Source: a virus. From it: DNA of 64,000 nucleotides. Both the position numbers and the translations under genes were made by a program. Below the pieces are notes generated by a model. It had not been told where the DNA came from. It saw only the letters and a list, made by a program, of their open reading frames with translations, and did no database searches. This document shows positions 3,854 through 52,700 of this stretch, piece after piece. Positions within the stretch are counted from its first letter, which is position 1. Every line of letters begins with the position of its first letter. The DNA lies in IMG/VR virus record IMGVR_UViG_3300020193_000009, positions 16,669-80,668 of that record. One strand, written 5' to 3'.

Positions 3854-4063
3854 TTAGCCTCCTAGGTTAATCTTATCTCTTTCGGCAATTTTTCTGCCGT
3901 GGTTGTATTCTTCTATAACATTTACTTTTAAAGTTTCTAAAAAGTATTCTTGTAAATCAAGATTGGGTGGATTGTTTACATTATTCATACAATCATTGTA
4001 TCCAATAGCAAACCAATACTTTGCTGTATAAGAAACACCTTTAGATTTAACACTATATGCCAT
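3854..4063 (-). CDS. hypothetical protein
   Basis: 69-aa ORF, TAATG overlap with the upstream gene. Confidence 0.6.
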   Translation of the reverse strand: MAYSVKSKGVSYTAKYWFAIGYNDCMNNVNNPPNLDLQEYFLETLKVNVIEEYNHGRKIAERDKINLGG

Positions 4064-4413
4064 TAGAGTTCATTTTTCTGAAGTTTATATTTAATCATAT
4101 GCATAGTCTTATTTACCACTTTAGAAGCAACAGATTTATAATCTTCTTGTCTAAATAAACTGCGTAAAGTACCACGTTCTCTTGAAGTGAAACCACCCCA
4201 TACTCCAAATTTAATATCTTCATTTAGAGCATAAGTTAAGCATTGTTCAATAACAGGGCATTCTTTACAATAAGCTTTTGCTTTGTCTGTTTCTTTCTTT
4301 ATATTTCTATTTTCTTCATCTGATTCAAAGTAAAATACATCAATAGGTACGCCTTTACAGGCTGCCCTATCGCGCCATATTTCTTTAATTGGACTAAATA
4401 ATTTACGATTCAT
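4063..4413 (-). CDS. whiB: WhiB-family transcription factor
   Basis: WRDRAACKG...CKECPVIEQC...GVWGG: four Cys plus the GVWGG turn. Confidence 0.92.
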   Translation of the reverse strand: MNRKLFSPIKEIWRDRAACKGVPIDVFYFESDEENRNIKKETDKAKAYCKECPVIEQCLTYALNEDIKFGVWGGFTSRERGTLRSLFRQEDYKSVASKVVNKTMHMIKYKLQKNEL

Positions 4414-4778: not shown

Positions 4779-5282
4779 TTAATACCAAATTGATGAACCA
4801 TCGGCGCTTTTTGATACAAAATTTAACCACCAAGCAGCGTATATCCAATCGGCAATTAATTCTTGTGGATCACAATCTTCTTCTTTTGATGCATAAGCGT
4901 ATGCCTGCTCAGCAAATTTTTCTGCATTATCTTTCATCCATTTTGACATTTCTGAACAATATTCTGCTGACATACCTTCTTTCCCATCTTCAAATCCTTC
5001 ACCATAAAAGTGATATGTTGTATTTTCATATGCATCAAAATCACCATTTTCAAGCAAAGAAATTAAAGCATTTCCATACTTTCCGCGATACCAACAACCA
5101 GTTCCAAGCATTCCGTATGATGGTTTTGATTTAGATACCATTGGATCTAAATTAAACTCAATATGCCAAGGACAATTGTTTTTAGCAATTGTTTCATCGC
5201 AATCTATTCTCCCATCTTCAGAATATATAACAGTTCCGGCTTTTACACACGGATATTCGTGTGGTATATTATCTAACCCCAC
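4779..5282 (-). CDS. hypothetical phage protein (MGLD- N-terminus)
   Basis: Track ORF 4779..5474; likely start GTG 5282 (GAGGAG upstream), which avoids a long overlap with the next gene. Confidence 0.6.
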   Translation of the reverse strand: MGLDNIPHEYPCVKAGTVIYSEDGRIDCDETIAKNNCPWHIEFNLDPMVSKSKPSYGMLGTGCWYRGKYGNALISLLENGDFDAYENTTYHFYGEGFEDGKEGMSAEYCSEMSKWMKDNAEKFAEQAYAYASKEEDCDPQELIADWIYAAWWLNFVSKSADGSSIWY

Positions 5283-5640
5283 AACCTTGTTTCTCCTCTC
5301 TTGCTTTTTGTTTTCTAGCTCTTCTTCTTTCATTATTTTTAGCTTTGTATTGCTTTTGCCTTGAAATATTAATAGTTTTTTCCCACTTAGGAGTCTTAAC
5401 AATTTTTTTGTCTCTAAATTTAGACTCAATCCATTTATTGTGGGCAGTAAAGGCATACTTTTCATCGTGTTCAAATAGCATCTTTACCGATAGAATATCT
5501 ACATTTTTGTAATGATACTCAAGACCACTTTGATATTCAACTACTAACTTACCAATGTTACTAGATGTATTGTAATCAAATTTTGCTTTATTGATAACAA
5601 TGTCATCAAATACTTTACTTATCTTTTTTCTGTTACTCAT
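5269..5640 (-). CDS. KTSC-like domain protein
   Basis: Start ATG 5640 (GGAG RBS); FDY...LVVEYQSGLEYHYKNVD...HNKWI resembles the KTSC pattern; basic C-terminal tail. Confidence 0.45.
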   Translation of the reverse strand: MSNRKKISKVFDDIVINKAKFDYNTSSNIGKLVVEYQSGLEYHYKNVDILSVKMLFEHDEKYAFTAHNKWIESKFRDKKIVKTPKWEKTINISRQKQYKAKNNERRRARKQKAREEKQGCGVR

Positions 5641-6055
5641 AATCTTCTCCAAATTGTGCTTCCATTTCCATAAAATCTTCTTCATCAGCCACAGGATAAT
5701 TTTCCAATTTATCTTGCCAGAACATTGCTGATTTAAAAGCTTCAGTAATATTATCAATTACTACACCAGATTCTTTATCTTTCAGCACACGGCATAATAG
5801 TCTATCAATACTACCGACAGCCCAATGCCTGTATGTTTCTATTCGGAAATCATCTGGGAATCTCTCCATTAGGTCTGAGGAAATTACTTTAAAATTTGAC
5901 AACTCAAGAGCATCTGAATCTCTGGTTTTATCAAATCCACAAAATCCCCAAGTTACAAATGTATCTTCTGGACCCCAATACCCAAAGTCTTCTGGCTTTT
6001 CAATTGCATCACCAGCACACTTTAAAAGATTTTCCGAATAAATAAATTTAGTCAT
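5633..6055 (-). CDS. hypothetical phage protein
   Basis: 140-aa ORF, GGAG RBS, overlaps both neighbours. Confidence 0.7.
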   Translation of the reverse strand: MTKFIYSENLLKCAGDAIEKPEDFGYWGPEDTFVTWGFCGFDKTRDSDALELSNFKVISSDLMERFPDDFRIETYRHWAVGSIDRLLCRVLKDKESGVVIDNITEAFKSAMFWQDKLENYPVADEEDFMEMEAQFGEDYE

Positions 6056-8880: not shown

Positions 8881-9288
8881 TTAATATCCCCTCGCTAGTT
8901 GGTTAAATGCTATTTCATCTGTTTTATCATTTTGAATTTCAAGACGCTTCTTTATCATAAAGAAGTAATCTTCTACCTTCATTAATTTATTCAATGATAC
9001 TTCATCCCATTGTTCCGGGAAATTGTTATCAATATCATACACAAGTTTGTGGTCTGGAATGTCTGAATTATAAACTATCTTGATACCTATATACCTACCA
9101 AAATCGTGGTCATTATATGTTTTTTTGAAGTCTAAACCAAGTGGGTATGCTTGTGGAAATGTTCGCTTCAATTGATCAATCAATACATTGGCTTCTAAAG
9201 TTGCCAGATTCCAATAATTTTCATGACCAATTTGTACACAAGGTTCATTAGAAGGAACTGTGTCAAATTCTAAATAATCGGTTGGCAT
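8881..9288 (-). CDS. hypothetical phage protein
   Basis: 135-aa ORF, AGGAG RBS. Confidence 0.7.
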   Translation of the reverse strand: MPTDYLEFDTVPSNEPCVQIGHENYWNLATLEANVLIDQLKRTFPQAYPLGLDFKKTYNDHDFGRYIGIKIVYNSDIPDHKLVYDIDNNFPEQWDEVSLNKLMKVEDYFFMIKKRLEIQNDKTDEIAFNQLARGY

Positions 9289-9318
9289 TATTTTTCTCCT
9301 GTTGTTGTTTATTGATAT

Positions 9319-9506
9319 TATAAATACAATAGAAATAGGCGGGAAATATTTATATCCGTGTATTCATCTGTAAGTACAAACCCAACTAAGCCTTACAGAT
9401 ATAGTTATCATAATGATAACAAATACTTTGATATGATCATTACAATCATACATATTTCCCTTCACCCGTGAAAGGAGAGGGCTAGCCTATTTCTATTCTA
9501 TTTATA
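9319..9506 (-). ncRNA. candidate multi-stem structured RNA
   Basis: Nested complementary pairs 9319-9340/9485-9506, 9341-9349/9452-9460, 9366-9374/9392-9400, 9404-9410/9414-9420 and 9431-9439/9443-9451. G-U wobbles favour the minus strand. Confidence 0.6.
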
Positions 9507-9882
9507 GTTCTTCCCAGATTCTACGATATTGAAAAACTTCATCATCATTACCAACTAAATATAATGAGATTACGTGTTTTCCAAGTTTTCTATCATCTGA
9601 ACCAATGTATGGATAAATCATTTGAATTGCAAATTTCCATTTACGAATAAATTTAATGTTGTCTCGATTATTGCTATTCCATTTATACTGAGTAATGTTG
9701 TAATCAGTATTTAAATACTCTTTGATAGTTCCGAGAAATACATATTCAAAGTGTTTATCTGGCACTGGTCTTGGCGTAAATCCATCATTTTTAATTGCAT
9801 TATCAAATAACCATTGCTTTTCCAAAACCATAAGATATTGCCCATCAGTGGTTGTCTTGAATCTATTGTAGTATTTTTTCAT
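9502..9882 (-). CDS. hypothetical protein
   Basis: 126-aa ORF, AGGAG RBS. Confidence 0.65.
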   Translation of the reverse strand: MKKYYNRFKTTTDGQYLMVLEKQWLFDNAIKNDGFTPRPVPDKHFEYVFLGTIKEYLNTDYNITQYKWNSNNRDNIKFIRKWKFAIQMIYPYIGSDDRKLGKHVISLYLVGNDDEVFQYRRIWEEL

Positions 9883-10525: not shown

Positions 10526-10862
10526 AAAGTTTCCCTTCTTTTAACTCCATAATTCGAACAAATTTATCAATACTAAATACGCAATCAAGAGCACTTTCAC
10601 CACAATAAATTGCACCATTGATAACAAAATTGTTGCTTCTCTCACCATTAGATAGCACTAAATCTATATAATTAATTATTTTGTATTTGTTGGTAAATCT
10701 AACAAAGACATCTCTATCTCCATCATAATGTAAAATTACCATACGAATCATATAGTATGATTCAAAGTTTTCGTGATTTTTATCTTTTTGCTTTTTCCAA
10801 GCAAGTATTTCGGTTTCTCGATGGAACAATGTTTGTTTATCGTAAATTTTAGTCATTAGCAT
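10518..10862 (-). CDS. hypothetical protein
   Basis: 114-aa ORF, GAGG upstream. Confidence 0.6.
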   Translation of the reverse strand: MLMTKIYDKQTLFHRETEILAWKKQKDKNHENFESYYMIRMVILHYDGDRDVFVRFTNKYKIINYIDLVLSNGERSNNFVINGAIYCGESALDCVFSIDKFVRIMELKEGKLYG

Positions 10863-11197
10863 TCCTCTCTTAGATGTTCTTCAATAGTTTTATCAATATC
10901 TTTATCTGTAAAACACCATTCACAACATCTTGAACCATCAGAATTTATTGTGTAATGTCCACCTTTTTGTGTAAGATTTGGATCAACTATTTTCATTACT
11001 TTAACTGCACAACTGTGACAGAGTGAAATTTTAAGTCTATCTTTTTCACCAATTGTATCAAAGAATTCACCATATCCACCAAAAATGTCAAATGATAATC
11101 CATTGTCTATTTGCCACAATTTATCATCTTGAAATGGAAATTGTTCAAATACGGGAATTATTTCTTCTGAACAAGATGTACAAACATATTTACTCAT
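10856..11197 (-). CDS. Cys-rich (Zn-binding) hypothetical protein
   Basis: CTSC...CHSC...CCEWC motifs. Confidence 0.65.
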   Translation of the reverse strand: MSKYVCTSCSEEIIPVFEQFPFQDDKLWQIDNGLSFDIFGGYGEFFDTIGEKDRLKISLCHSCAVKVMKIVDPNLTQKGGHYTINSDGSRCCEWCFTDKDIDKTIEEHLREEC

Positions 11198-23029: not shown

Positions 23030-26000
23030 TTAAACCATTTCTATTTGCATTTTTTTGATCTGCTTGCGCTCAATATAGTCTTCTATCGTAATTATTTTAT
23101 CAGCAGAATCGAGCTTAAAAGAGTCAAGTCGATTAAGTGTTTCTTTATCTTCGACCCTTGATAGTCGTGCTACATACCACTCACCTTTCTTTAACAAACC
23201 TTTCACTTTTTTATACACTGCTGCAAAAATAACTACCTTAAAAAACTGTTTTCCATCCCAACAATACACACTTGCCATCTCTTTACCTGACGATGTTATA
23301 AAATTTCTAATATTGAATACATACATCATTGTTTTTGGATCATTAATAAAACCAATATCATGTTTATACACCCAGGCATATTTGTGATCTAGCCCTTGTT
23401 TCTTCATCATCATTACATTAAACAATTTCGAATCTTGCGCTTGATACACGTCACAATATGCGTGCAATGTTCTGTCGCCAATTAGAGCATAAACATAATC
23501 CCTCTGTGCCAATTCTGTATTTCTTTCACCAAAAACAGTGCAGGAACCGGAATGATCTTCAAATTCAACACGCAAATAATTCTGAGCTTTCTTTGTAGAC
23601 CTCACCACAGCTTTAATCAAGGTAAGGCTTGACATTGTTTCATGAAAATCCGCAGCATTTTCAACAAATTCATCAATCTCTGTTTTAAATTCACTTGACT
23701 TGATTGGAAATCCAAGCACAGGTAGGTAATATCTTTGATGATCAAACTGCGATACGTGACCCATTGAATCAAATGCGCCAACTTTATCAAAATTCTCTCG
23801 CAACGGAGCCTTCACCGCAGATTTAGAACACTTATTATTAAACTCTTCAAAGGAATTAAAAGGTCTTTTGTCAAAAATCTCTTTAATTGCGCTCACACCA
23901 CAGCCAGTTACATTAGTAAGACCGAACCTAATGCCTTCATCTTCACCCGGCAGTGACATTGAGAAGAATTCTTGTGACTTATTGATGTCTGGCGGATAAA
24001 TTTTAAGCCCTAAGCGTTGTGCTTCCATCAAGTATGCAGTGATTTTGTCAGTTGCTGACTCATTGTACAAAAGAGCCCATACAAATTCGAGCGGATAATT
24101 GACTTTTAACCACATTGTCTGATACGACATCAAAGAATAGGCAACAGCATGAGATTTATTAAACATATACAACGCCGACATCTCAAATTCAGACCATATT
24201 TTGTCCGATTTTGATTTGGTCAAGTAAGGATTGCTAATAAACTTCTCCTTGAATTTATCAAACTCGGCTACATCACGTTTTTTACCAATAATTTTGCGCA
24301 ATGAGTCTGCTTCTGACCAAGAAAATCCCGCCAACAGCACCGCCATTTGCATGAGTTGCTCTTGGAAGATAACTGTGCCATATGTTTCTTCTAAAATTGA
24401 CTTCACAACCTCATGTGGATACTTCGGATCAGCATCACCCTTCTTACAGTCAATATATTTCTGCCCTTGCGACAACAAAGCGCCGGGTCTAACCAGGGCA
24501 TTTGACACCACAAGGTCGTTAAAGTTATCAATACCCATTCTTTCAATCAAATTACGGTAGGCGGCGGCATCAGTTTGAAAAATACCCACCGTATTGATGT
24601 TATTAAAGTTCTCATACACCCCTTGGTCATCCAGAGCCAGGGATTGTGCCTCCACATCAAGCCCATAGCGCTCTCTAATCATCGCTAGCGCGTCTTTAAT
24701 GACCGATACGGTCTTGAGACCCAAAACATCTATTTTTATAAGCCCAACGGCTTCTGCGTCTTCCATCGCAAACGCTGTAACCGCACTTCGCTCCCCGCCT
24801 TGAGAGACCTTTCTTGACTCCACAGGGCATACTTCTGTTAATGGTACGGCAGATACCACCATTCCTGCAGCATGCACGCCCGCTGTACGCACACGCTCTT
24901 GCAATCTCTCTGCCAATACCGGAATATCGGGATATTTGCGAACAAATATCTTTCCCTTTTCCGTATTCTTTAATTCTTCGATTGTTTCAAAAAATGGGGT
25001 GATGGAATTGATTTCAGCATACGGAACCTGTAGAATTCGGGCAACATCTTTGACCGCACTCTTTGGCTTAAACGTGCCATAGATCGAAATTGCCGCAACC
25101 TTATCTTCACCCCAGCGCGTGGCAAGATAATTTTTGACTTCATCTCTGCGTTTATCTTCAAAGTCCAGGTCAATGTCGGGATAGTCGTTTCTTTCGGGGT
25201 TAATAAATCGGGAAAACAAAAGGTTGTATTTTATCGGGTCTACTTTGGTAATGTCGAGCAAGTACGCCAGCACGCTACCGCCAACGGAGCCTCGCCCTGT
25301 GCCTCTGCCAATGTTGTTGTTGTCTGCCCATTTAACAAGATCCCATACAATCAAGAAATAGTCGGCAAAGCCGAGCTGTTTAATAATCTCCAACTCCTCG
25401 TTAAGTCGTTGCACATATTCTTCACCCAAGCCCAGCTCTTTTAGGCGAAAGCTTGTAACTTCAGCCAAATAATCGTCCGAATTTATTGTACGCATAAATT
25501 TTGGCAACAGATTCTTTCGCTTTTCCAACTTGGCAGTGCATTTTTGCGCTACCTCTATCGTATTTTCCAGAATATCGGTACGATCATACCCGGCATCTTT
25601 AAACCACGAAGCCACCTCGTCTACATTTGCCACATATGGATTAATCTTATCAAACCTAAGAAACCGGTTAGGATACATATTATTAATTTTTGCTACCATA
25701 TCAATTCCAGCCACATGAATGCAATCAGCATGCTCTTTAGCATGCCTTTGTTCTGCTGCGTTAAGGCTGGGGTATTGTGAAAGCATTAATAGGATTTCTT
25801 CACATCCTTTGTCATGCTTTGTTGGGAAATGACAATCTGCTGTTGCTACGACAGGTCTATTATATGTACCCGCCAAACTTATAAGACCGTCATTTAACTC
25901 TTTTGGATTCCAAGCCTGTATTTCATAGTAAAAATCATCTTTAAATATCTTTAAAAAGCGCTCCGATAACTCTTGAGCCCTATTTGTATCTCCCGCCAAA

Positions 26001-26437
26001 ATTGATTTTGATATAGCACTCGCCATACAACCGGAAAGCGCAATAATATCATTGTCTACCAATTCTTCAAGAAGATTAAAATCCATTCTAGGCTTGTAGT
26101 AAAAATTGTCGCTCCAAGCTTTTTGATTCATCTTAAATAATTTTTGCAAACCTTCATTTGTTTTAGCAAGGAGTATTAAATGAAACCTTTCGCTTGTGTC
26201 TTTTGCATCGTGTTCAATTGATGGTACAAAGTAGGCTTCAATACCAAACAATGGTTTAACATTGTGTTTATTACAAGCATCTTGGAATTTTAACACACCG
26301 CCCATTGTACCGTGGTCTGTAATTGCGGCGGCAATTTGTCCATTAGTGCTAGTAATTTTGGCAATTTCATCCGGCGTTGACATTCCATCAAGCAGTGAAT
26401 ATTCAGAATGACAATGTAAGTGAACAAATTCAGTCAC
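23030..26437 (-). CDS. dnaE: DNA polymerase III alpha subunit
   Basis: PHP domain FVHLHCHSEYSLLDG and AITDHG; GRGS; PDIDLDF; HAAG; KIDVLGL; FNKSHA. Confidence 0.97.
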   Translation of the reverse strand: MTEFVHLHCHSEYSLLDGMSTPDEIAKITSTNGQIAAAITDHGTMGGVLKFQDACNKHNVKPLFGIEAYFVPSIEHDAKDTSERFHLILLAKTNEGLQKLFKMNQKAWSDNFYYKPRMDFNLLEELVDNDIIALSGCMASAISKSILAGDTNRAQELSERFLKIFKDDFYYEIQAWNPKELNDGLISLAGTYNRPVVATADCHFPTKHDKGCEEILLMLSQYPSLNAAEQRHAKEHADCIHVAGIDMVAKINNMYPNRFLRFDKINPYVANVDEVASWFKDAGYDRTDILENTIEVAQKCTAKLEKRKNLLPKFMRTINSDDYLAEVTSFRLKELGLGEEYVQRLNEELEIIKQLGFADYFLIVWDLVKWADNNNIGRGTGRGSVGGSVLAYLLDITKVDPIKYNLLFSRFINPERNDYPDIDLDFEDKRRDEVKNYLATRWGEDKVAAISIYGTFKPKSAVKDVARILQVPYAEINSITPFFETIEELKNTEKGKIFVRKYPDIPVLAERLQERVRTAGVHAAGMVVSAVPLTEVCPVESRKVSQGGERSAVTAFAMEDAEAVGLIKIDVLGLKTVSVIKDALAMIRERYGLDVEAQSLALDDQGVYENFNNINTVGIFQTDAAAYRNLIERMGIDNFNDLVVSNALVRPGALLSQGQKYIDCKKGDADPKYPHEVVKSILEETYGTVIFQEQLMQMAVLLAGFSWSEADSLRKIIGKKRDVAEFDKFKEKFISNPYLTKSKSDKIWSEFEMSALYMFNKSHAVAYSLMSYQTMWLKVNYPLEFVWALLYNESATDKITAYLMEAQRLGLKIYPPDINKSQEFFSMSLPGEDEGIRFGLTNVTGCGVSAIKEIFDKRPFNSFEEFNNKCSKSAVKAPLRENFDKVGAFDSMGHVSQFDHQRYYLPVLGFPIKSSEFKTEIDEFVENAADFHETMSSLTLIKAVVRSTKKAQNYLRVEFEDHSGSCTVFGERNTELAQRDYVYALIGDRTLHAYCDVYQAQDSKLFNVMMMKKQGLDHKYAWVYKHDIGFINDPKTMMYVFNIRNFITSSGKEMASVYCWDGKQFFKVVIFAAVYKKVKGLLKKGEWYVARLSRVEDKETLNRLDSFKLDSADKIITIEDYIERKQIKKMQIEMV

Positions 26438-27010: not shown

Positions 27011-27023
27011 TTTCCCTCTTTCG

Positions 27024-27097
27024 TGGAGACAAAGGGACTTGAACCCTTAGCCTTCTGCTTGCAAAGCAGATGCTCTTGCCAGTTGAGCTATGCCCCC
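27024..27097 (-). tRNA. tRNA-Ala(UGC)
   Basis: Cloverleaf: acceptor GGGGGCA/TGTCTCC with G3-U70, anticodon arm TCTGC-TTTGCAA-GCAGA, T-loop TTCAAGT. CCA not encoded. Confidence 0.93.
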
Positions 27098-40363: not shown

Positions 40364-40759
40364 TTATCTCTCCGTTAAAGTTAAAGAAACATCGTAATAA
40401 GAGCACTGGGAGGTATAATCTCGTCTTATTAGATCTTCGCTATATGAATCTATATAGCAATCTAATGTTTGATACTGACCTGGCGATAATTCAATAATAA
40501 TTGTCGCAGCAGCTGAGCCATTAGCTAACGAATAAAGAAAATCTCTGCCTACCCGATTGTCCACAGTTTTTGATTGTAAACTTGGTAAATATGACCATTT
40601 TAAAGAAAATTGTTTTTTATTCCTTGAATAATATCTACGTTTATGACCCGATGCTAAATCAATATCATCAGCAGCAATCTGTTCACTAATAGATATTTTT
40701 CTGTTATGTTCTGTTATTTCTGTTGAGTTAATTGATAAAAGTTTATGTATTGACATCAC
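40364..40759 (-). CDS. minor tail protein (distal-tail-like position)
   Basis: First gene after the TMP; F.L.WSYLP motif. Confidence 0.65.
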   Translation of the reverse strand: MMSIHKLLSINSTEITEHNRKISISEQIAADDIDLASGHKRRYYSRNKKQFSLKWSYLPSLQSKTVDNRVGRDFLYSLANGSAAATIIIELSPGQYQTLDCYIDSYSEDLIRRDYTSQCSYYDVSLTLTER

Positions 40760-43700
40760 ACGCCTCTATTTAAACCTGTATATGTTTTAATTACCCTATT
40801 TTCTAAACCAGCTGTTTTTTGATTTCTTGGCAAAACTTTTGTATTATATTCTTTCATCATTGAATTAAACCACTCTGGTTCACCAACAAATGTATCAACA
40901 TAGATATTTACATTCTGCGTTGATGAACTCGTTCCACCAGCAGACTGCATTGCTGGCGCTGGAACCCTCATTGATGGAATTTGCGGGACAGAGAACTTTG
41001 CTTTATTAAGCTGAGTCAGGGCAGGTATGCCAATCTTCCTTACAGCCTCTGCATTTAGAACAAATTCACCACCATGCAGAGTTGCAGGAATTGGCATAGA
41101 TGGAGCGCCGGGTACATAACCACCTTCTTTTCTGTTCACGCTTGGCAATGGGATTGGTCCCAATTGATTCTTTGTACGATAAAATCTATCATAGTAATCC
41201 TTCGCTCTCCTTATCAAAATTCTTTCAATCCTTGTATTTATCGCAAGATTTTCTACAGGGACAGTGCCTATTTGCATAAAAGGATCTCTTCCAACTATTC
41301 TTGCAAAGGCATTGAAACTTGCCTTACCTTCACCAAAGTAGTATAGTAAATTCTCAAAACCGTATAGGTCATCCGTCATGCCGTATGGTTGTCCTTTAGT
41401 AATATTTTTCAGACTAGAATATGAGCCAAGAAGGAAGTCATCAAAATGCCTTGCCATTCTTATATAATATTCCTGAAACTGCGCAAATTCACCAATGATT
41501 TTCCAAAGAGTTTGTGTTTGCACAACACTACTCAACCCGTGACCACCAATATCTGGATCAAATTTTTGCCTTTCTAAGATCGTTCGCCAACTATTCTCTA
41601 AAGCCTCGTCAAAGCTCTGACCAGGAATAAAATCACGCATATCAAGACCTTGCAATCTTGCAAAAATCTCATTTAGTGCATACCGCTGTTCATTAGTATA
41701 GTTCTGAATTGGCAGATTCTTGTAATCAAGAATTTCATACTTACCAGCAGGGAACCTGAGCCCCTCACCAGGTCTTGGAGTAAAATATGTGTCTACACCC
41801 ATTATATTTTCAATTGCCCCGGGGTTAGCATCAATTAGATCTTTTAATTTAATGGCTATTAACCGACCTGTTTCCCGGGAAGCACTTCCTCTATTCATTA
41901 TTGGTCGCACAAGGTGATTTAATGCAAAATGAATTGTGTCTCTAATAATTTCATTATTATCACTATTCATAACCCTATAATGGTCACTTGTTGGACGTAA
42001 AATAGCATCACCAATTTCATTTATTTCAAATGGATATGATGTTTCATGAACAGCCATCAACTTATCAAGAGTCAACTCTCTCATCCCACGATCCAATTGA
42101 ATACTCTTCATTATTTGTTCTTCGATAACTACAGGCTTGTTTCTCGCAGCGACTTCTATGGCTGTTAGCCTCTTTCCTTCTAGCACTAAACGGGCATATT
42201 CAAGCTGAGCCTGAAGATTGTTTTTTACCTTGGCGGCATAAAGGAGCGCTGATACATATGTATCATTAACATCACCGCCAAAAGATTTATACCCAACGTG
42301 TGCTTCGAGCCATCCTCTTACCGTACTAACTGCATTTGGACCAATTTTTGATGTCCCAGTAATATCAAGGGGGTTTAAAGGAATATTTCGAACCTTTCTT
42401 AAATCCGGAAGAGCTTTTAATAAATCATCACTTAATCCAAATCCAACTGTTTCGCCTAAAATATTATGAATATACGCGCCTACTGATTCAGTAACTTCCG
42501 GGGACCCTTCGAGATGAGAAAATTCAAGTAAACTTTCAGGCAAAATAGAGCGACCAGTCACTTTTTTAGTTTGTATGTTAAATTGTTTTTGAACTAAAGC
42601 AGGTAGATTTTTACCAGTAGTTCTTGTACCAGATGGCAAAGCAAGTTGTCGAGGTATAAGATTTTTAACATCTGTTAATTTTGAAGATTCTTTTTGAAGG
42701 CTGGATACTATACCTTTTGCATCATTATTTATTTTAATAGACCTATTTACTCTAAGCAAAGCTCTCTTTAACAAATCTTTTGTGAAAAACCCACCTCTTC
42801 TTCTAACTTGTTTTAGTATATTTACAAGTTCCATATCGTCAATGTCAAGAGGAATTTCAGCCAATATTTTCTGGGTCCGTGTGCGCATACTAGTTGAGCC
42901 AGGGATATTGATATCTTCGAGGAGCCTGCCTCCTTTTGTTATATAGAAAGAACCTTTTGGACGGAGGATTGGAAGACTGGTTTCATCAATAGGAGAAAGA
43001 TCGTAACCCAGTTTTCTAGCAATTTTTGCAGCACGACCTTCTCCTTGAAATACATCGCCAGCAAACCCCCTGTCGTCTGCGTAGTACCTGGCAGAATTTA
43101 CTATTTCTTCGACTTTACCTCTAACCCATGAATAAGTATAATCTCCAAGATTATCTCCAGGACCAAACGATCTACCAGATAAAGATTCCGAAATAATATT
43201 ATCTTTAATACCTTCTGGACCCACATGGATCCCAATTCTTCTTGAAGGTAACAGATTTAATGGATTTAGAGACCTTATTGCTTCGATTGCCTTAGTGATA
43301 GGTCCTGGTTGCAAGATTGCATCACGTGTTCTATATGGCATTGATTCTTGTCTCAGGGCGGGTGGCATTGATTCATTAGCTATAAATGCTGCTTTATTTG
43401 CAGCTAATCTTGCATTTCTAATTGCAATATTATCTGCTCTAATAAGATTATTAATTACGCCTTTAACACCAGCCTCTAAAGCATTGCCTTGTGGTGGATT
43501 TACAGAACCCTTAAGAGTGTTAACAACTTCTGGAATATAATTTTTTGCAACCTCAATTTTATCAACAACTGAACCTACCTTTTCTGCAATCACTCCAGCA
43601 CGGATTTTTGCTGATTGACCAACAGTTAATCTTCCAGCTTTGGCAGCAGAGACCGCCTTTGCAGCTCTTGCAACATCATCAAACCTGCTAACCGCTGTCA

Positions 43701-46700
43701 CTGGAGTACCGGATGCCGCTGTGCCGAGTATGTTGAGAGTGTGTAGACCTTTTTCAAAAGTACTTAATTCTTTACCGGAAGCCAATTGCATAGCGGATCT
43801 TGCTACCCCGACTACTGGAATGAATTGTGAAACATTTAAAAGATCCTTCATCTTCCCCTTGCTTGCTATGTTTTCTTGAACTGGAGAAATGCCTAAACCT
43901 CGTGTAAGATTAGATGCTCCAGTTGCAGCGACATATGGATTCCTAGAAGCTGTAACTGCTCTGGACGCTGAACTTGATCTGTAAGAACCTGATGCATCAT
44001 CAAAGTCGCCTTCTGCTGCACTAAATAACATTCCAAGGTTTGCAAAAGCAACAGATGCATTAACTAAACCGGTAGCAACAGACTTACCAATATTAGAAGC
44101 AGCACCTTTTACACCACCAACAACATTAGAAATAGCATCACCAATACCACCAAATATTCCACCACCTTTACCGCCAGGGACTTTTCCGCCCTTAAAGTAC
44201 CCACCGTGTCTCAAGTTATTTAATCTCTCAAGAGATCCAAGACCAATCTTTCTTACAGACTCTGCGTTTAATACATATTCACCACCATGCAGAGTTGCAG
44301 GAATTGGCATAGATGGAGCGCCGGGTACAAATCCGCCTTTTTTATATTTAGGAATATATCCACCTTTATATTTTCCATACTTAAGTGAGTCCAAAATTCT
44401 TTGCAAATTTGGTGGTATTGGGTCTTCATCATCAATTTCTTTTGGCAAAATTTGACCCTGTAATTGATATCTTATAAAATCAATATCTTGTTTTGTTAAT
44501 TCTCCAGTATAATTAAGATAACTCATTATTGAATTTGCACTTTTATTCAACATGGCATCATCTGTGGTAATATCAGGTGCTCCAAATATGGCATGCATTA
44601 ATTCATGTTTAAGAACATGACCCTGATCATTAAGCCCTAATATTCCCTGGATACCAGATGGGAGGACCGCAAACCCTTCACTAGCTAATGATTTTTTATA
44701 TTTTTCAGTTCTTGCTAATCCACTAAACATACCTTCACCAGAGGTAATATTTATGTAACCTTTCATCAGATAATTAACTACTTCTTTAATTGGCTGTGGT
44801 ATAAGATCAGTTGGAGCAAAAATTTTACTTGGTGTTATATAAATAGGAGTTGTAGATAAATACCTACCATATTTTTCATTTTCTTTAATATCGTTACCTA
44901 CCGTATAATAACCGCCCTTGAAGGTAAGCATTTTCGGATCGTGAGTAATTTTAATAATGTAGCTAAGACCATTTTTGGTAATATACGCATTATCATCAAA
45001 TTTCGTTGCATCTTTTACTGTAACTATTTTATAATTAGCACCAGCTAAAGTTGCAATTTCCTTCATAGCGTTCTTATATTGATCATATCTTAACTGCCCT
45101 ATTACACCATGTGTAATATCTTGAACAAATGTTATTGTATTATTAGATTTTCTTAATGCTGCAGCAAGAGCAGACTCTCCAATTTTTTGATCTCCTCCAA
45201 CAAACGATGGGTATGAATTAATATCAAACGCCGGATCCATACCATAAGTCTCACCAAATATTCGATATATTTCTTTACCATATTGAAGGTAACTTCCCCT
45301 TCCTTTATCACCCGGGTTGTATCTAGCTCCTGTACGATATGCAAAAGGCAGAGGGTTTTCTACCCCACGAACTTGATACTTACTTGGCTGCCAATCCGGA
45401 ATTTCGTCTTGGAATAAAACAGCAAAATCAATTAATTGTTGTTTTGAAAGCGCAAATTTTATTCCTTTTTTCTTATAATACTCTTTAGCTTGTTTTACAA
45501 CATGAGGATCATTGTAATAACGAGGATCATTGCTCTCGATATAATCTCTATAACGAACAGTTCCAGTAAATAAATCTTTTAATGTTCTTGGTGGAGCGCC
45601 AGCTTGAGATTTGTATTGATCTATATTAAATAATTTCTTTACACCTTCAGTAGCCAAATATAGTGGTGATGTTTTAGAGTCATGCTGAATTATATCAAAA
45701 ACCCTACCAAGCAGGGTTTTATCTTCATCATTACCAAAGATTGCACCGCCAAGTGAACTAATACCACCAATGCCAAGCAATCCTTTTAATTTACCAAATT
45801 TACCACCGAATAACCCCGTCTGAACCCCAGATCTCGCTTCTTGTAGATGACGAACAAGAGCCGCTACTGCCTTTGCTTTTTCTTCTGGGTTGTTTACAAT
45901 TTTCTTTAGTAATTCTGGAGATACATTTAGTTCTCTTAATACATTTGCTCCAGTAAACCTTCTAGCTTCGCTAGCAAATAGATTTGTATCTCTTAATATT
46001 TTTGCACCCCTTTTAGCCTGAAGTATATAAATTGATGCATTTTTTCCTTCAAATTGACCCTCTAAGAATCCAATCGCCCTATCTGCCAAATTTTTATCTG
46101 CCAGCCCTCTATATACTTTTGCGGCTTCTTCTATTGGCATACCTCTTAATTTGTTTACTAATTTAACATTTGACAAACCTTTCATCCACGTATACACAGT
46201 TCCAAGGAGATGGTCTCCTGGTCCAGCCGGCTTAGCGTCCATCATTCCATGTTTTGTAAAATCATCAACACCTGGTCTGCCCACATGAATTCCAATTCTT
46301 CTGCTTGGAATCTTTGTAAGTGGATTTAAATTATGCATAAGGTCTACAACTTTTGTAAATACACCCGGTGCTTTTGTAATGTTCTTTTGCATTCTAGCAA
46401 TTACGCTATTGCCACCCGTAAACAAGGAACGATATAATTCATCTTTCTCTAACAATTCGCTTAATACTGGATTTAACTTTTCGGTTGCGCCAAATTTAAT
46501 ATATGGATCAATTCCAACCTTTTTTGCAAACCTTTCAATATACATGCCCATTTGAGAATTTTTACCAACGCTAAGAGCTGAATAAGCTTTTTCTACGCCT
46601 TTAAATTGAAGCTCATTTCTTGCTCTTGCCAACATTCCCAATGATCTACCAATCTTATTTATAAACCCGGGACCCTTTTGACCAACATTAGAACTCTCTG

Positions 46701-49700
46701 TCATTATCCCAGCATCAAAAGCCTCTCTAGTTAATTTAGGAGCAATCTTAATTTTCTCAGCAAACCCTAGTAAATTAGAAATAATTGGTCTATAAACACT
46801 TTGAGCAGTGTTGGTAGCCCTTTGCCCCTCAAATGGAACCCCTGTTTTAGTTAAACCACCCCGGATTAATCTCTTTGTATCATCAATGACGCGCCTAATG
46901 ATACCTGGCTGTTTTATATTTTCTATTACTTCACCCTGAAGGTTGGTCACTAACTTAGAAACATCATCAGCAGATTTTGCAGTTAATGCAGAAGATGTAG
47001 AACGGAAAGGAGCAACGAGGCTAGAGCCAGCAGAAGCAAGCAACGACTTTAAATTTCCACCAGCCATAGTCTCTCTCGTTACTCCAGGCGGTGGTGTTGG
47101 TCCAAAGAAAAACGACTTAACTAGACCGCCCACAGTTGCTTTTTTAGCAGATTCTTTTGCTGCCGCCTGCACCATTTTTTCAACTGCTAGTTCAGATGAT
47201 GTTTTTGTAGACCCTTTAGCCATTGCACTCAGTGTTGCTTTCAAACCAACTTGACCGGCAGTAACAGCAGCTTTGCTTACGCCTCCAGTCAATATTGTTG
47301 CTGCAACATCAGCAGTATTTGTAGCAGATTCAATCAACCCGGATGTGCGAAGATTTGGGTTTTTACCAATAGCTTTACCAGCAAGATTAATATATGGATT
47401 AATAAATGTGGCATTAAGACTTTCTCCATATGATGTTAGTGCATTATATGCGCCTTTTCCAACTTTCTTAACGGCTCCAACAGATTTAGAAATAGCATCA
47501 CCAATACCACCAAATATTCCACCACCTTTACCGCCAGGGACTTTTCCGCCCTTAAAGTATCCACCGTGTCTGAGGTTGTTCAATTCATCAAGAGGACCAC
47601 GACCAATCTTTTCCACAACTTTATGATTTAGAACATATTCACCGCCATGAAGCAGGGCTGGCACACCTTGTTGTGGGAAGCCTGGTGTTGGACCACTACC
47701 TGTAAATGCTCCAACGTGTCCACCATAATACCGACTAAACTTACTAAGCCTTGTAGCAACAAATCCAAGAGCAGATTTTGCAACATTACCCAATTGCCCA
47801 ACTAATTTGCCAACGACATTATCGTTCCAGTTTTCAACAAAAGTATCCCACCCGTCTTTAAATTTATCGGGTATGTTGCCAAAATGTTCTTTTAATTTTC
47901 CAACTAAATAATTAAGACCAGTATTGTCGGAGAGCCAATCTTTAATATGTCGCATTGTTGGTTTAATGTATGTGTCATAACCACTTTGAAACCCAGCTGA
48001 CAACTCGTGCCACTTTGTTTTTATATTATCCACAGCAGTAAGAAGAGCATCTTCTCCAATTAGAGCATTCTTCCATCGTGTTAATACCGGTGAAATATCT
48101 GTTGACCACTTTGTTGTAACGGCAGAAGCAATCTCTTCAATTTTTGTCTTAACACCACCAAATGCAGTTGCAATTATATTTACAGGTATTGCTGAAAGCG
48201 ATGCAATACCATTTATAAACCCTTGCATTATATTTCTGCCAATGCTAAAGAACACAGTAGATGGGGATTGAATTCCAAATATTCCTTTAACAGTATCCAC
48301 CACTCTACCCCACCAACCTAAGAAAGCACTCCATCCTGACGGGTCACCTAGTCCGTTCATTATTCCGCTCTTTAGTGATTCACCTATAGAACGACCTTTA
48401 TCTATAATTGGCTGAATAAGAGATTTAATAGTATCTTCAAACCATTCTGCCAAGATTAGACCGAACGACGTATGTTCGCCACCCCCAAATTGAGGGTCGC
48501 GAGTCGTTAATCTATCTTTAAATCCTTCTTTTAAGGAATTAGCAATTTCTGCACCAGTCGTTGCGGCTTGAATTTTTAGTGCTTCGGCATGTTCTTTTGC
48601 TACAATATTTGGAATAAAAGTAGTCGTTCTAAGCTGCATTATAAGGTCTTTATATGGTTTATAATCTGGATCAAATTGAGGAAAGTCTTTTAGTTCTGGG
48701 AATGTAGCTACTGTTTGCTCCCTGGTAAGAGATATTGGTCTATTAAGATCTTGTTTGCCGTGATAGCCCAAATTAATTAATTCTTGAGTTACTTTATATT
48801 TAATCTTTTTATCTGCCGGGTCATAATAAAATGGTGGTGGAAGATTTTGTGGCAAGAATGTTTTACCACCGTAGATATCCTTACCAACAAGAGATTTTGT
48901 AACCACTGGAACAGGTGGCTTTTTTGTACCGCTGCTGGAGTCTTGAGATGCATTTGCTGCTTCATCTAATGCAACAATTTTGGCTTTTGCCTCTTCTAAC
49001 ATCCCCTGCAATTCCTGCAGTCTCTTCTTTAACTCTTCAAACGGATCAAAATCTGGCGGAATAGGTGGGAAAAAGTCAGCTAATCCAGGAAAGGATTCTA
49101 AGTCTGTTTCAAGATTTTTAAATATCTTCATGAACTCATCATAGACATCACCACTCTTTGCCCGAATCTCTCTCTTCATAGCATCAAGCATTTCCACAGC
49201 AGCCTTAACCCCTGCAAGTATCCATTCATGCTCTGGGACAATCTTTGCCACCTCAGTTCTAACTGCGGTAGCCCAAGGCGTTACATATTGAGCAATAATT
49301 CCTTGAGTAAATGCTTTACTAAATGCGTCCGGCAAGCCTTGTACGAGCACATATGCAGCACCAAGTATTGAACTTGCGTTTGCAGTACCAATTGAAGCGC
49401 CAAATTTATTTGTGGCTTCTGCTACAAGCTTATCCATTGTCATAGAGAACATTCCAATTGATGGATCAATAACTTCTCTTATAGCATTTGGCAATGCAAG
49501 CATTGATTTCTCAAATGTTTTGGCAATATCGTCTGAAAACTCTATCCCGGCTGCGCCAAGGTCTCTCAATAATAATGCAAATTCATCCTTTGTAGAGAAA
49601 CCTCTTGCTTTAATTCTATCTAGACGTAATTCAAACTCTTTAAACATTAAGTCATATTGTTTAACTAATTCTTCTTTTTGTCTGTTAATTACAGCAATAG

Positions 49701-52700
49701 CTATTTCACGCTGCTGAGCCTGCAGCTGTTTCCTGCGGTCCGTGTCAAGATCTTTCAATTCCTTTTCAGAATCTTTATCTGATTTTCTAAATGCAAGGTC
49801 AAGCTCTCTGACATCTTCCGTTCTGCCTTCATAAGCAGCCACTTTTCTTTCACGCAAATAATTATCTCTATCCAAAGCCCTTGTCTTTATTAATTCACGC
49901 CTTCTTTCTTCATATTCCATTTTTGCAGTCAAACGTTCTTCTGCATCAGCAAGTTCTTGAATTGCTTCAACTTGTTTATCAAATGCCTCAAGTGCTTTAT
50001 CTTTTTGTCTTTCAAGAGAATCTTTCATATTGTCAATAAATCTTGAAACAGATTCGTCAGCATTTGCGAATACAGCCATACCAAATTCTTCTTTCATTTG
50101 CATCATGCCTTTTTCAATAGCTTTCTTAAGATCGCCCCCAAGTTTTTCTCCGCCAGCTTTTGCTTTAACCGTTGCTTTCTTTAATAGTTCCAAAATCGGC
50201 AACTCTGCAAGATTCCTCATTCTCTTCGCTAGTGGCACACTAACATCTTGTCCAAATATTTTTAGATATTGATTAGCAACTGTAGTTCTAAGACTACCGA
50301 TACCGTCTGCAAAAGCTAAACCTGCATCTTTAATTTTATTAGCTAAATTTTTAGTAAAATCTTGCTCTGTCATGAAATCTGACAATGTATTGCCAGCTTT
50401 ATCAGCAATACTTGCTATATCTTGCAATATAGATTTTTCTTGTTGTGGAGGTGCTCCAAATATAAAATCTAAATAACGTGCATCTAATACGTAATTAATT
50501 GCCCCAGCTGTTTTGGCAATCCAACCAAATTGAGATGAAATTTTCTTTTTCATTTCTTGTATAAGAATATCCATTAAATACAAAACTCCAATAACAATAT
50601 TTTTAAATACATCAATTACTACAGCCGCCATATTTGTATAGAATGTTTCAAACAATGGAACGGCATTTGCCGCACCTTTTACAAGAAGCTCAAGTAATCC
50701 AAGTGCGTCATAAGATAATGAGTAGAAAAGCCCGTTCAATGAATCTTTTACCTTTTGACTGTCTTTATCAATAATTCCAGAAAACACGCGGTATATCAAT
50801 ATAAATTTATTAACAGCTCTTGTGAGAAGAGGAATAAATGTTCCAGTATTTTTATTATCTGTTATCTCCCTCATTCTCCCTATAAAAGATTTTAATGGAC
50901 CCTCCGCAAAACGCTTAAATGCATCCGCCGCAGATCTTGCCACTAAAGACAATGCGTAAAGGACTCCAGCTGTTTTAGCTGTGCTTGTTTCCATTTGATC
51001 TATGCCGGCAATATAAAGAATAAAATCTTTAATCGGATCGAAAATTGCAACCAAAGCTTCTCTTATTGTTTTCCAAGCCAACTTAAAGTTATTAAGGACA
51101 GGTTCCATGTTTGTAATCCCGCCTCTAAGTGCTTTAACAGCCGCTACCACAGCTATAATAATTGGAATTGTGACAACTCCAAAAGCTACAACTTTTACAA
51201 CTAGTGCGGTAAAGCTAAATATAGTTTTTGTTATTGACTGGAGCAGTGTTGTTACGGCAGCGCCCAAACCAGCCATTATCCCACCGGATTTAGAAAATGT
51301 AACTAATTTAACTAACGCAATCATAGCGGACTTGCTCAGCGTGCTAAACCCAGCAGTTAAGAAGAAAAGAACCCCTCTAATTGTTCGACTTCTTGCAAGA
51401 GATGCAACAAACATTTTACTTTCAGTAGCAACTACTTTTAACATCGCAAGTTGCATTAGACCAAATTGTTTTGCTACATTTGCAATTCCACGACCAATTG
51501 GTGCAAACGGAGCTGCCACTGAACCAAGCAGAGATTGCATTCTTCCAAATATCGGAATTGATTGAATAAGTTTTTGATTAACAGCAAGCAGCCCTTGCTT
51601 CATTGCTTTAAATGTGTCAACTGATCTTATTTTAAGAGACTCAATTGCCAATTGTAAACGAGACATATTTTTTACTGTTTCTTGCAAAACTTTAGTTTCT
51701 ATTGGAGCGGCAGTGCGGATTCCCTTTAAAGTTTCTTTTCTAACATTTGCTGGCATTGGAACGCCATGTTCTTTTAGATATTTCTCTTTTGCAGCTTGTA
51801 ACTCACGAGCAATCCTTGCTCGTTCTTCTTTTAACGCAGCCGCTCTTTGCCTTGGTGTCATTTCTCCAACATTTTTTCTTGCTGCATCAATTTCCTGTTT
51901 ACTTACACCGCCATCTATTACTTCAAAATTTCCACCTTGAGTTATTGGTGCTTCAAAAATATTTGGACCCTGAAACAGATTGGGTCCTTTAAATACATTA
52001 GCCAACGACTTATTTAATTTTATAATATTTTCATTTGTTTTTGCTGTGTTTGTAGCCGTTTGTTGAGTATTTTGCTGAATTTGATTTAAACCATCAGTAG
52101 CACCAGGACTTGGCTGACCAGATGGTGTCAGATCTCCACCCACAACTGGAGCTCCACCTACAGCCGCCTTCCCCTTCCCCCTTCCCCTTCCACCAGCTTG
52201 TTGTCCACCAGTATTTCTTGCCGCTTCTCTTTGCGCGCTCTTTGCTTCTCTTTCCGCATCTCTAGCTTCTTTAGATATTGCACTATTTGCATCTTTAACA
52301 GCCTTGTCAACTGCTCTTTGCAAACTATTCATAGCTTCTGCATGTCGCCTAAGAGCTCTCTGTAGCAACTTAATTCTTTGCTTCGCCATAGATTTCATAT
52401 TTGCATTCTTATTGTGCTCTGCAACCCTTACTCTGTTTTCTTGATTTTCAATTTCTTCGTTAATATTTTCTATAGTTACTCCAGCATCAGCCAATTGAGG
52501 GAAAAGCTGTTTAATTGTTCTACCTTGACCCGAAATGCTTTGACCTGCACTTTCAATAACTTGCTGTAATGAAAATGCTCCCGATCGCAATGAATTTATA
52601 AATTTTTCATTTATTTTCTTCGTTGTTTTACCAATTTTTACTTTAGCGTCTTCTCCAACCTGTTGAATAATTTCAGCCGGTGTTGCTGTAGCTACCTGTA

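Follow-up and report, generated by a model that had tools for sequence, protein, structure and literature searches.

Positions 9319 to 9506 of the window, by which we mean the whole 64,000-nucleotide stretch of virus record IMGVR_UViG_3300020193_000009 analysed here, hold on the minus strand an element that very probably belongs to a genuine, conserved family of structured RNAs. The family is matched by no catalogue that we searched and is so far restricted to phage records. At its centre lies a junction of three helices, which start with G-C-rich pairs and are joined by UA and GAA, the third linker being absent. Our preferred reading, to which we assign a probability of roughly 0.35 to 0.4, is that the RNA acts in trans and that an anti-Shine-Dalgarno (anti-SD) loop on the second helix pairs with Shine-Dalgarno (SD) tracts. 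The record that supplied the window comes from lake water, is 80.7 kb long and is 77% complete.

A three-way junction conserved across phage groups

An earlier note on this DNA, made from the letters alone, had described 9319-9506 as the only sizeable gap in a packed gene run and as a stretch that folds almost completely. Our map of open reading frames (ORFs) agrees: the ORF-free stretch 9289-9501 is the only sizeable gap in a run of minus-strand genes, and both flanking ORFs lie on that strand, with ORF A beginning at 9288 and ORF B terminating at 9502-9504, its stop codon falling within the closing stem, P1. We found that the 188 nt of the minus strand fold to -60.0 kcal/mol, compared with -35.2 +/- 3.6 kcal/mol for dinucleotide shuffles (z = -6.83; 0 of 200 shuffles), and those of the plus strand to -53.7 kcal/mol (z = -6.55).

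Every helix that the note had drawn is present in the window copy, and five of them are kept by relatives in the same lake clade: the closing stem, the 9-bp stem, the hairpins at 9431-9451 and 9404-9420, and the pairing of 9366-9374 with 9392-9400. The 6-bp stem 9360-9365/9421-9426 is confined to the window copy, being broken in relatives that are 95% identical and lying outside the consensus fold. What had been taken for a linker (9461-9484) holds a covarying hairpin, P2 (9464-9482), which the note had overlooked. The observation as a whole is thus confirmed, and the interpretation that accompanied it is partly supported.

Relatives of the element were reached along two routes. Protein searches with the flanking ORFs identified syntenic loci (ORF B, element, ORF A) in further phage contigs from lake water, with proteins 68-95% identical, and these relatives keep the element via compensatory changes. 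Two more groups, one marine (TARA and other ocean contigs) and one GC-rich (64-71% GC), were then reached with a DNA pattern based on the stretch that is conserved best. Phage contigs of the lake, marine and GC-rich groups together supply 24 distinct relatives, and the element in record G003 was confirmed as a family member with the covariance model R1, which would permit the family to be surveyed in full. Pattern matches at L019, L024, L036, L045 and L049-L052 were discarded, as they are without P1 or P3.

All members share a core in the order P1, UA, P2 hairpin (which starts G-C-C and ends G-G-U), GAA and P3, and the 3' strand of P3 passes unbroken into the 3' strand of P1. This contiguity implies stacking of P1 on P3, such that the two probably form a single rod from which P2 protrudes. 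The P1/P2/P3 core was recovered in 5 of 6 separate single-sequence minimum free energy (MFE) folds of marine and GC-rich members. Around this core the members differ in size. The minimal ones, only 75-85 nt long, consist of P1, UA, P2, GAA and a P3 hairpin that ends in a plain loop, and are small enough for structural and biochemical study; in the long forms, the window copy included, P3 bears extra hairpins (P4-P6). P1 measures 7-11 bp outside the lake clade, to which the long closing stem is peculiar. Contig L097 carries a tandem pair of minimal members, at 5050-5133 and 5179-5257 (plus strand), 45 nt apart. The second copy, L097b, was found by the model alone and not by the pattern, and stands outside the 24 members; it has diverged, with GUCG/CGAC replacing GCC/GGU in P2, and keeps UA and GAA. 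A similar UCACAUUGA-like box comes after each of L097, L105 and L108.

The covariation that the note had named as a check proved strong. In a MAFFT alignment of 15 sequences, made with no structure fitting, 97.2% of cells are paired and 13 of 22 pairs have changed on both sides, and sliding the partners by 1-3 columns lowers the paired share to 35-51%. On four of five measures none of 500 shuffles matched the observed values; on the remaining one, further pair types, 11 of 500 did. The R1-fitted alignment of the 24 distinct members gives 98.3% paired cells, 14 of 22 pairs compensatory and 104 compensated cells against 28.6 +/- 4 in shuffles; with the partners slid, pairing falls to 44-51%. These values are biased towards structure because this alignment was fitted to the model. 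Five of the inner eight pairs of P1 covary across the family. P2 is the best-conserved part: its closing G.U and two C-G pairs are invariant, and its outer two pairs covary through CG, UA, GC, AU and UG.

The choice of strand rests on the G.U pairs, as the note had argued. All 24 members have the closing G.U of P2, and the lake clade has further G.U pairs in P3, P4 and P6, making at least four places on the minus strand. Because each of these reads A-C on the opposite strand, the functional strand is the minus strand, co-transcribed with the genes.

Two other pairings can be drawn within the window copy. The pseudoknot that the note had proposed between AGCCC and the loop GGGUU is drawable for each of the four sequence types of the lake clade, one change being compensatory, but is without a counterpart in marine, GC-rich and minimal members. 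It excludes P2 because both use the same GCCC, and is possibly an alternative conformer of the lake clade, not the family fold. A second alternative, possible in every clade, pairs window 9464-9478 with 9457-9463 (minus strand), that is, loop UCCUUUC with GAAGGGA (J2/3 and the start of P3). This SD/anti-SD-like hairpin would exclude P2 and the base of P3, and both of its strands are invariant. As for the junction itself, its invariance could be explained by the UA_handle or UAA-GAN junction motif, in which UA faces GAA at a helix junction; we mention this as a lead only.

Features of the RNA in the window, its flanking ORFs, and the P2 loops and upstream box of relatives (coordinates are those of the window unless a contig is named)
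Feature	Position	Strand	Remarks
Whole structured RNA	9319-9506	minus	188 nt including the long closing stem; fold z -6.83
Family-shared portion	about 9331-9495	minus	covariance model R1 gives 154 bits at 9331-9495
P1, 5' strand, UAUAAAUAGAAUAGAAAUAGGC	9485-9506	minus	carries ORF B stop codon (9502-9504) and TATAAATA box
P1, 3' strand, GCCUAUUUCUAUUGUAUUUAUA	9319-9340	minus	partner of 9485-9506; 21 pairs and 1 mismatch
Junction J1/2, UA	9483-9484	minus	identical in all members, including L097b (found without pattern)
P2 hairpin	9464-9482	minus	GCCC (9479-9482) with GGGU (9464-9467); loop UCUCCUUUCAC at 9468-9478
P2 loop motif CUCCUUUC	9470-9477	minus	equals actinobacterial 16S rRNA 3' tail (anti-SD); together with the preceding U, complements AAAGGAGA
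Junction J2/3, GAA	9461-9463	minus	invariant between P2 and P3
P3, 5' strand, GGGAAAUAU	9452-9460	minus	7 of 9 pairs covary across the family
P3, 3' strand, AUAUUUCCC	9341-9349	minus	directly abuts P1 3' strand, zero linker
P4 hairpin, variable domain	9431-9451	minus	lake-clade consensus fold, 3 compensated pairs
J4/5, UCAAAGUAUU	9421-9430	minus	UYAAA motif again in marine and GC-rich long forms
P5 hairpin	9404-9420	minus	compensated pairs 96/110, 99/107, 100/106 (lake-clade alignment)
P6 hairpin, GGGUU in loop	9366-9400	minus	compensated pairs 117/151, 119/149, 123/145 (lake-clade alignment)
Upstream ORF B, 126 aa	9502-9882	minus	no family match; context, not RNA
Downstream ORF A, 135 aa	8881-9288	minus	no family match; ribosome-binding site AGGAGA at 9295-9300; context, not RNA
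AGGUCUAUAAAGAUU box	L047 2251-2265		5' of P1; same place in L022, L027, L029, L030, L031, L034
L111 P2 loop, CUAUCCUUUC			found with a pattern that does not fix the loop
L113 P2 loop, AUCUCCU			
L109 P2 loop, ACAUCUCCU			
L096 P2 loop, UUGUCCCUU			
L097a P2 loop, ACCUUCUC			
L097b P2 loop, UCACCUCGUG			tandem second copy
L108 and L110 P2 loop, UUGGUUG			without motif; P3 loop has AUCCUUUCU
L114 P2 loop, UUUCGUAAUA			

Phage carriers and genomic neighbours

Rfam 15 (4227 models) matched only a tRNA, at 27024-27097, when the window was scanned at the gathering threshold, and a scan of 9200-9620 at E values up to 10 gave chance matches only, of at most 20 bits. Marine, GC-rich and minimal members likewise returned tRNAs only. 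ARAGORN placed no tRNA at 9319-9506 and RF00005 was unmatched there; the likeness to a tRNA is limited to a 7-8-bp closing helix, the UA and a 4-5-bp hairpin closed by G...U. The view that this is a structured non-coding RNA of the minus strand outside the known families is therefore upheld as far as Rfam is concerned. Fremin et al. (2023) obtained 8,495 unnamed candidate RNAs from IMG/VR, among which the present family may be included.

Searches of cultured phages and of cellular genomes gave a similar picture. We found no blastn match to the lake, marine or GC-rich elements in 50,697 cultured phage records, and R1 detected nothing in nine cultured actinophages (Blueeyedbeauty, Braelyn, DSL-LC01, Grayson, BRock, GiJojo, Satis, Atuin and Neville). 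With one genome for each of 185,579 bacterial and archaeal species, the strict pattern had 0 matches; the relaxed pattern gave 17 in the same genomes, all scoring at most 18 bits with R1 and rejected as chance. The RNA is present in a single copy in each of the records G000 (the window phage) to G004, the tandem pair in L097 being the exception.

The phages that carry the RNA are 43-171 kb in size. Lake and marine carriers form one phage family, with identities of 59-89% in DnaE and 75-94% in terminase, the marine relatives standing at 59% and 75%, respectively, from the window phage. The GC-rich carriers G001 (171 kb) and G005 (117 kb) match this family in neither protein. A structured RNA class without a match in Rfam 15 is thus common to phage lineages of lakes, the ocean and GC-rich communities that differ in DnaE and terminase. 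The DnaE-like polymerase of the window (23030-26437, minus strand, 1,135 aa) has its nearest cultured relatives in Streptomyces phages, at about 37% identity.

A gene of the WhiB family occurs in six of the six records that are at least 72% complete (G000, G001, G002, G004, G005 and G007), and was not seen in eight records that are smaller or fragmentary. WhiB is found solely in Actinobacteria and in phages of these bacteria, and has been used to call actinophages (PMC6802176); its presence in the window phage therefore marks this phage as an actinophage. The gene in question lies at 4063-4413 (minus strand) and scores 76 bits with Pfam, though the GC content of the phage is about 37%. Between unrelated RNA-bearing phages, the only proteins in common are WhiB and one small unknown, neither of which is linked to the RNA.

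The RNA is independent of its neighbouring genes. In the marine phage G004 it lies between homologues of the window ORFs 10856-11197 and 5633-6055, and that genome contains no homologue of ORF A or ORF B. What follows the RNA also varies. In some marine members a tRNA-Arg(UCU) begins 2 nt after P1, and in L111 a tRNA-Lys begins 4 nt after it; other marine members, including L029 and L030, have a hairpin and a U-run at this place. Elsewhere, the next gene encodes an HTH regulator (L013, L025), an HNH nuclease (L114), an Erf recombinase (L096) or an unknown ORF. These varied downstream genes, together with the absence of ORFs A and B from G004, argue against the note's suggestion of a cis-regulator tied to the gene starting at 9288; since some of them are tRNAs, they favour a discrete, stable RNA. 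The sole tRNA of the window, tRNA-Ala(UGC) at 27023-27097 (minus strand), is situated away from the RNA, unlike those of the marine relatives.

Upstream of the RNA, all marine members carry an invariant 15-nt box, AGGUCUAUAAAGAUU, which contains TATAAAG and directly precedes P1. Sequence further upstream varies from contig to contig. The box occurs only once in G004 and may be a promoter or else extend the RNA at its 5' end. The idea of an upstream promoter motif repeated within a genome was rejected, as the TATAAATAG box of the window and the AGGTCTATAAAG box of the marine phages are each essentially unique in their own genomes.

The P2 loop and its possible partners

The P2 loop, unpaired in both the MFE and the consensus folds, resembles the part of the ribosome that docks messages. 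In the window it contains CUCCUUUC, which equals bases -9 to -2 of actinobacterial 16S rRNA, the terminal 11 nt of which (ACCUCCUUUCU) are deduced from the cleavage data in PMC12274833. The commonest 5-mers found 4-18 nt before the start codons of the window phage (GGAGA, AGGAG, AAGGA and AAAGG) combine into the ribosome-binding site (RBS) consensus AAAGGAGA, and we found that the first eight bases of the loop, UCUCCUUU, are its exact complement. By sequence and predicted fold, then, the RNA has one trait of anti-SD-loop small RNAs (sRNAs): its pyrimidine loop is accessible and complements ribosome-binding sites. In the GC-rich phage G001 (IMGVR_UViG_3300025310_000004), GAAAGGAG occurs 37 times against 3.8 expected, 32 of the occurrences lying at gene starts, 5-8 nt before the start codon. 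Most GAAAGGAG sites in G001 follow CGAC, and more than half lie within the first 26 kb, a region that also carries the RNA. Covariation of the loop with each phage's own RBS consensus is suggestive for G000 and G004, and not clean. We also take the order UAGCC...GGUG...CUCCUUUC to recall helix 45 and the tail of 16S rRNA, with the order permuted.

How far this resemblance extends depends on how members were found. Because the first patterns contained the P2 loop, its invariance was partly imposed by the search. A second scan fixed the junction only (GGCTAGCC, 6-24 free bases, GGTGAAGGG) and returned 31 stretches, with model matches in 8 of the 23 loci that were new to it. The P2 loop is 73-100% C/U in 22 of 24 members, against about 50% in the whole RNAs. 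Measured by the longest run in common, the match to the 16S tail CACCUCCUUUCU extends over 7-9 nt in 18 members (L111 among them) and 5 nt in 2; in L097b, outside the 24, it is 6 nt. To judge from these loops, the anti-SD-like motif is a strong tendency, not a law.

These findings suggest the following model. The minus strand of 9319-9506 would be the gene for a stable structured non-coding RNA, in which the junction would form a rigid scaffold for the P2 loop, whose single-stranded pyrimidines would be the working part. Acting in trans, the RNA would pair through this loop with SD-type purine tracts, thereby adjusting how phage or host messages are translated. In the lake clade only, the RNA would probably be cut from a polycistronic transcript; release by RNase III is plausible because the 21-bp closing stem is long enough. 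In the marine relatives, the RNA would instead resemble a unit of its own beside a tRNA. Discrete transcription, processing and the role of the loop are steps that we infer. There is precedent for the central step, as the actinobacterial 6C sRNA uses C-rich loops to bind mRNAs and needs no chaperone (PMC6486639). The loop points to the translation initiation machinery, and Actinobacteria lack an Hfq-type chaperone and have few known sRNA mechanisms. What we describe is a small RNA showing an anti-SD-type loop, here on a new, highly conserved fold.

Several observations weigh against this model. A consensus promoter and terminator scan finds none flanking the window copy, no transcript is on record, and none of the public runs that carry this DNA is RNA. 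Once the pattern frees the loop, L114, L108, L105 and L096 share at most 4 nt with the 16S tail. Conservation is strongest in the junction and not in the P2 loop, although the junction's invariance is also partly imposed by the search patterns; it could reflect a protein or ribosome partner, or catalysis. Conservation this strict, down to an invariant junction core, usually means that an RNA has an important partner. Moreover, a loop complementary over 8 nt to any SD site would have no target specificity, its sites being shared with the ribosome.

A close rival is a loop that, as a mimic of the 16S 3' tail, would bind protein rather than mRNA and so act as decoy or sponge. It would capture an anti-SD-recognising factor, for which a host toxin RNase set off by infection and a protein associated with the ribosome are candidates. 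We consider this unlikely, although it is consistent with the highly conserved junction, which fits protein recognition, with the loop's identity to the tail over 8-9 nt in the large-phage clades, and with the WhiB genes that mark the six most complete records as actinophages. Actinobacterial toxins, RelE1 (PMC12620021) and MazF-mt11 (PMC12274833), are reported to remove the anti-SD tail, and the anti-SD mimic of OLE RNA binds ribosomal protein bS21 (PMC12054373). However, MazF-mt11 requires CACCU, which is lacking in most loops (only L097b has CACCUC), RelE1 cleaves upstream of the anti-SD in a ribosomal context, a bS21 gene was found in none of the phages here, and the loops of distant members are unlike the tail. 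A broader idea, rather unlikely in our estimate, is that actinophages make an RNA copy of the ribosome's mRNA-docking tail on a three-way junction, either competing with 16S rRNA for SD sites as a global control of translation or luring away host factors and toxin RNases whose target is the anti-SD tail. If true, this would be an RNA-based takeover or counter-defence device of an undescribed kind, and a loop that mimics the 16S tail would give phages a new route to steer or protect host ribosomes. It is also rather improbable that the element works in cis within a polycistronic mRNA, as an RNase III site, a stabiliser between messages or a mask over the RBS of the next gene. The window copy does lie within a gene run that has no consensus promoter or terminator, its 21-bp closing stem includes the ORF B stop codon, an outer-stem change in the lake clade (pair 5/201) is compensated, and the RBS AGGAGA is located 19 nt after the stem, where 5 nt of the loop could pair with it. 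Yet only the lake clade has the long stem, a tRNA gene comes next in marine members and L111, the next genes of L025 and L013 are without a complementary RBS, and a plain processing hairpin needs no invariant three-way junction across unrelated phages.

The remaining explanations fare worse. A catalytic or ligand-binding RNA, such as a new self-cleaving ribozyme or a small-molecule aptamer or sponge, would account for a compact junction in which invariant unpaired UA and GAA are flanked by G-C-rich helices, as is typical of such cores, and small ribozymes are common in phages. Nonetheless, it is very unlikely: no Rfam ribozyme or riboswitch model scores, even at E up to 10 (hammerhead, twister, pistol, hatchet and HDV-like family models gave no match), the hammerhead core CUGANGA/GAAA is absent from the RNA, a 21-bp P1 is too stable for a switch, and the class of the downstream gene is inconsistent, unlike that of a riboswitch. 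Cis action on RNA polymerase, in the manner of the processive antiterminator putRNA of HK022 and leading to read-through of downstream terminators, is more improbable still. The early-type regions, the position upstream of varied genes and tRNAs, the hairpin and U-run after the RNA in L029 and L030 and the conserved box before the marine copies would suit it, but putRNA consists of two long stem-loops in a V shape, without a closing helix (PMC9378689), the present RNA is closed by P1, and sequence likeness between the two is absent. Finally, the note's own alternative of a MITE-like mobile repeat, or another DNA-level element such as a replication origin or a cruciform, is suggested by the 22-nt terminal inverted repeats, the AT-rich surroundings and the good folding of both strands. 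This reading is already largely refuted. The element is single-copy in every genome searched, with no copies from the bacterial genome scans; it occupies the same site in all lake relatives, with no target-site duplication flanking the stem; its compensatory, rather than shared, changes keep helices with G.U pairs that are A-C on the opposite strand; and no turn in GC skew occurs at 9.4 kb.

Likeness to known RNAs

For the trans-acting model that we prefer, the nearest systems in mechanism are the sRNAs with C-rich loops and the anti-SD mimic of OLE RNA, whereas the nearest in genomic habit are T4 rnaC and rnaD and in architecture phi29 pRNA and the Y RNAs. With 6C of Actinobacteria, RsaE/RoxS and RNAIII, the present RNA shares a small structured form and an exposed pyrimidine loop that can pair with G-rich ribosome-binding regions, and 6C, from the same host phylum, needs neither Hfq nor ProQ (PMC6486639). 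In contrast, 6C is chromosomal and consists of two plain hairpins with C runs, and the present RNA, borne by phages, has a single CU-rich loop on a closed three-way junction. OLE RNA provides a second case of a non-ribosomal RNA that includes the exact 16S tail, in its P6, where the mimic is functional and binds bS21 (PMC12054373). In that RNA of about 600 nt from Bacillota the mimic is paired to an SD-like strand, whereas here it lies in a hairpin loop.

T4 rnaC and rnaD (species 1 and 2) are likewise stable phage RNAs of unknown function that lie in a tRNA cluster beside tRNA-Arg. They are unrelated to the present family: with filters off, R1 scores at most 5 bits on T4 70.7-71.4 kb, the folds differ, and rnaC has a tRNA-type T arm that the present RNA is without. 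The pRNA of phi29 (Rfam Phage_pRNA) is another phage RNA whose frame is a three-way junction and whose loops are functional; it belongs to podoviruses of about 20 kb with protein-primed replication and assembles as a ring on the portal, whereas the present phages are 43-171 kb in size and their RNA has no Rfam match.

The Y RNAs, partners of Ro60/Rsr, resemble the present RNA in that their ends are joined in a stem and they have a pyrimidine-rich loop. Among five records, TROVE (Ro60) passes the cut-off in G001 only; G000, G002 and G004 are without a TROVE gene. In G001 the RNA is 85 kb from the Ro gene, and the Rfam scans gave no Y RNA match. The Ro60-like protein itself is encoded at G001 93363-95162 (plus strand), equal to L063:13363-15162, and is 38-44% identical to the best-matching Streptomyces and Arthrobacter phage proteins.

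Far from the RNA, window positions 40756-60072 (minus strand) form a single ORF of 6,438 aa, whose sole Pfam match is PhageMin_Tail at residues 231-446. The product resembles a tape-measure protein and is several times longer than usual; under the customary length rule, should it apply here, the tail would be exceptionally long.

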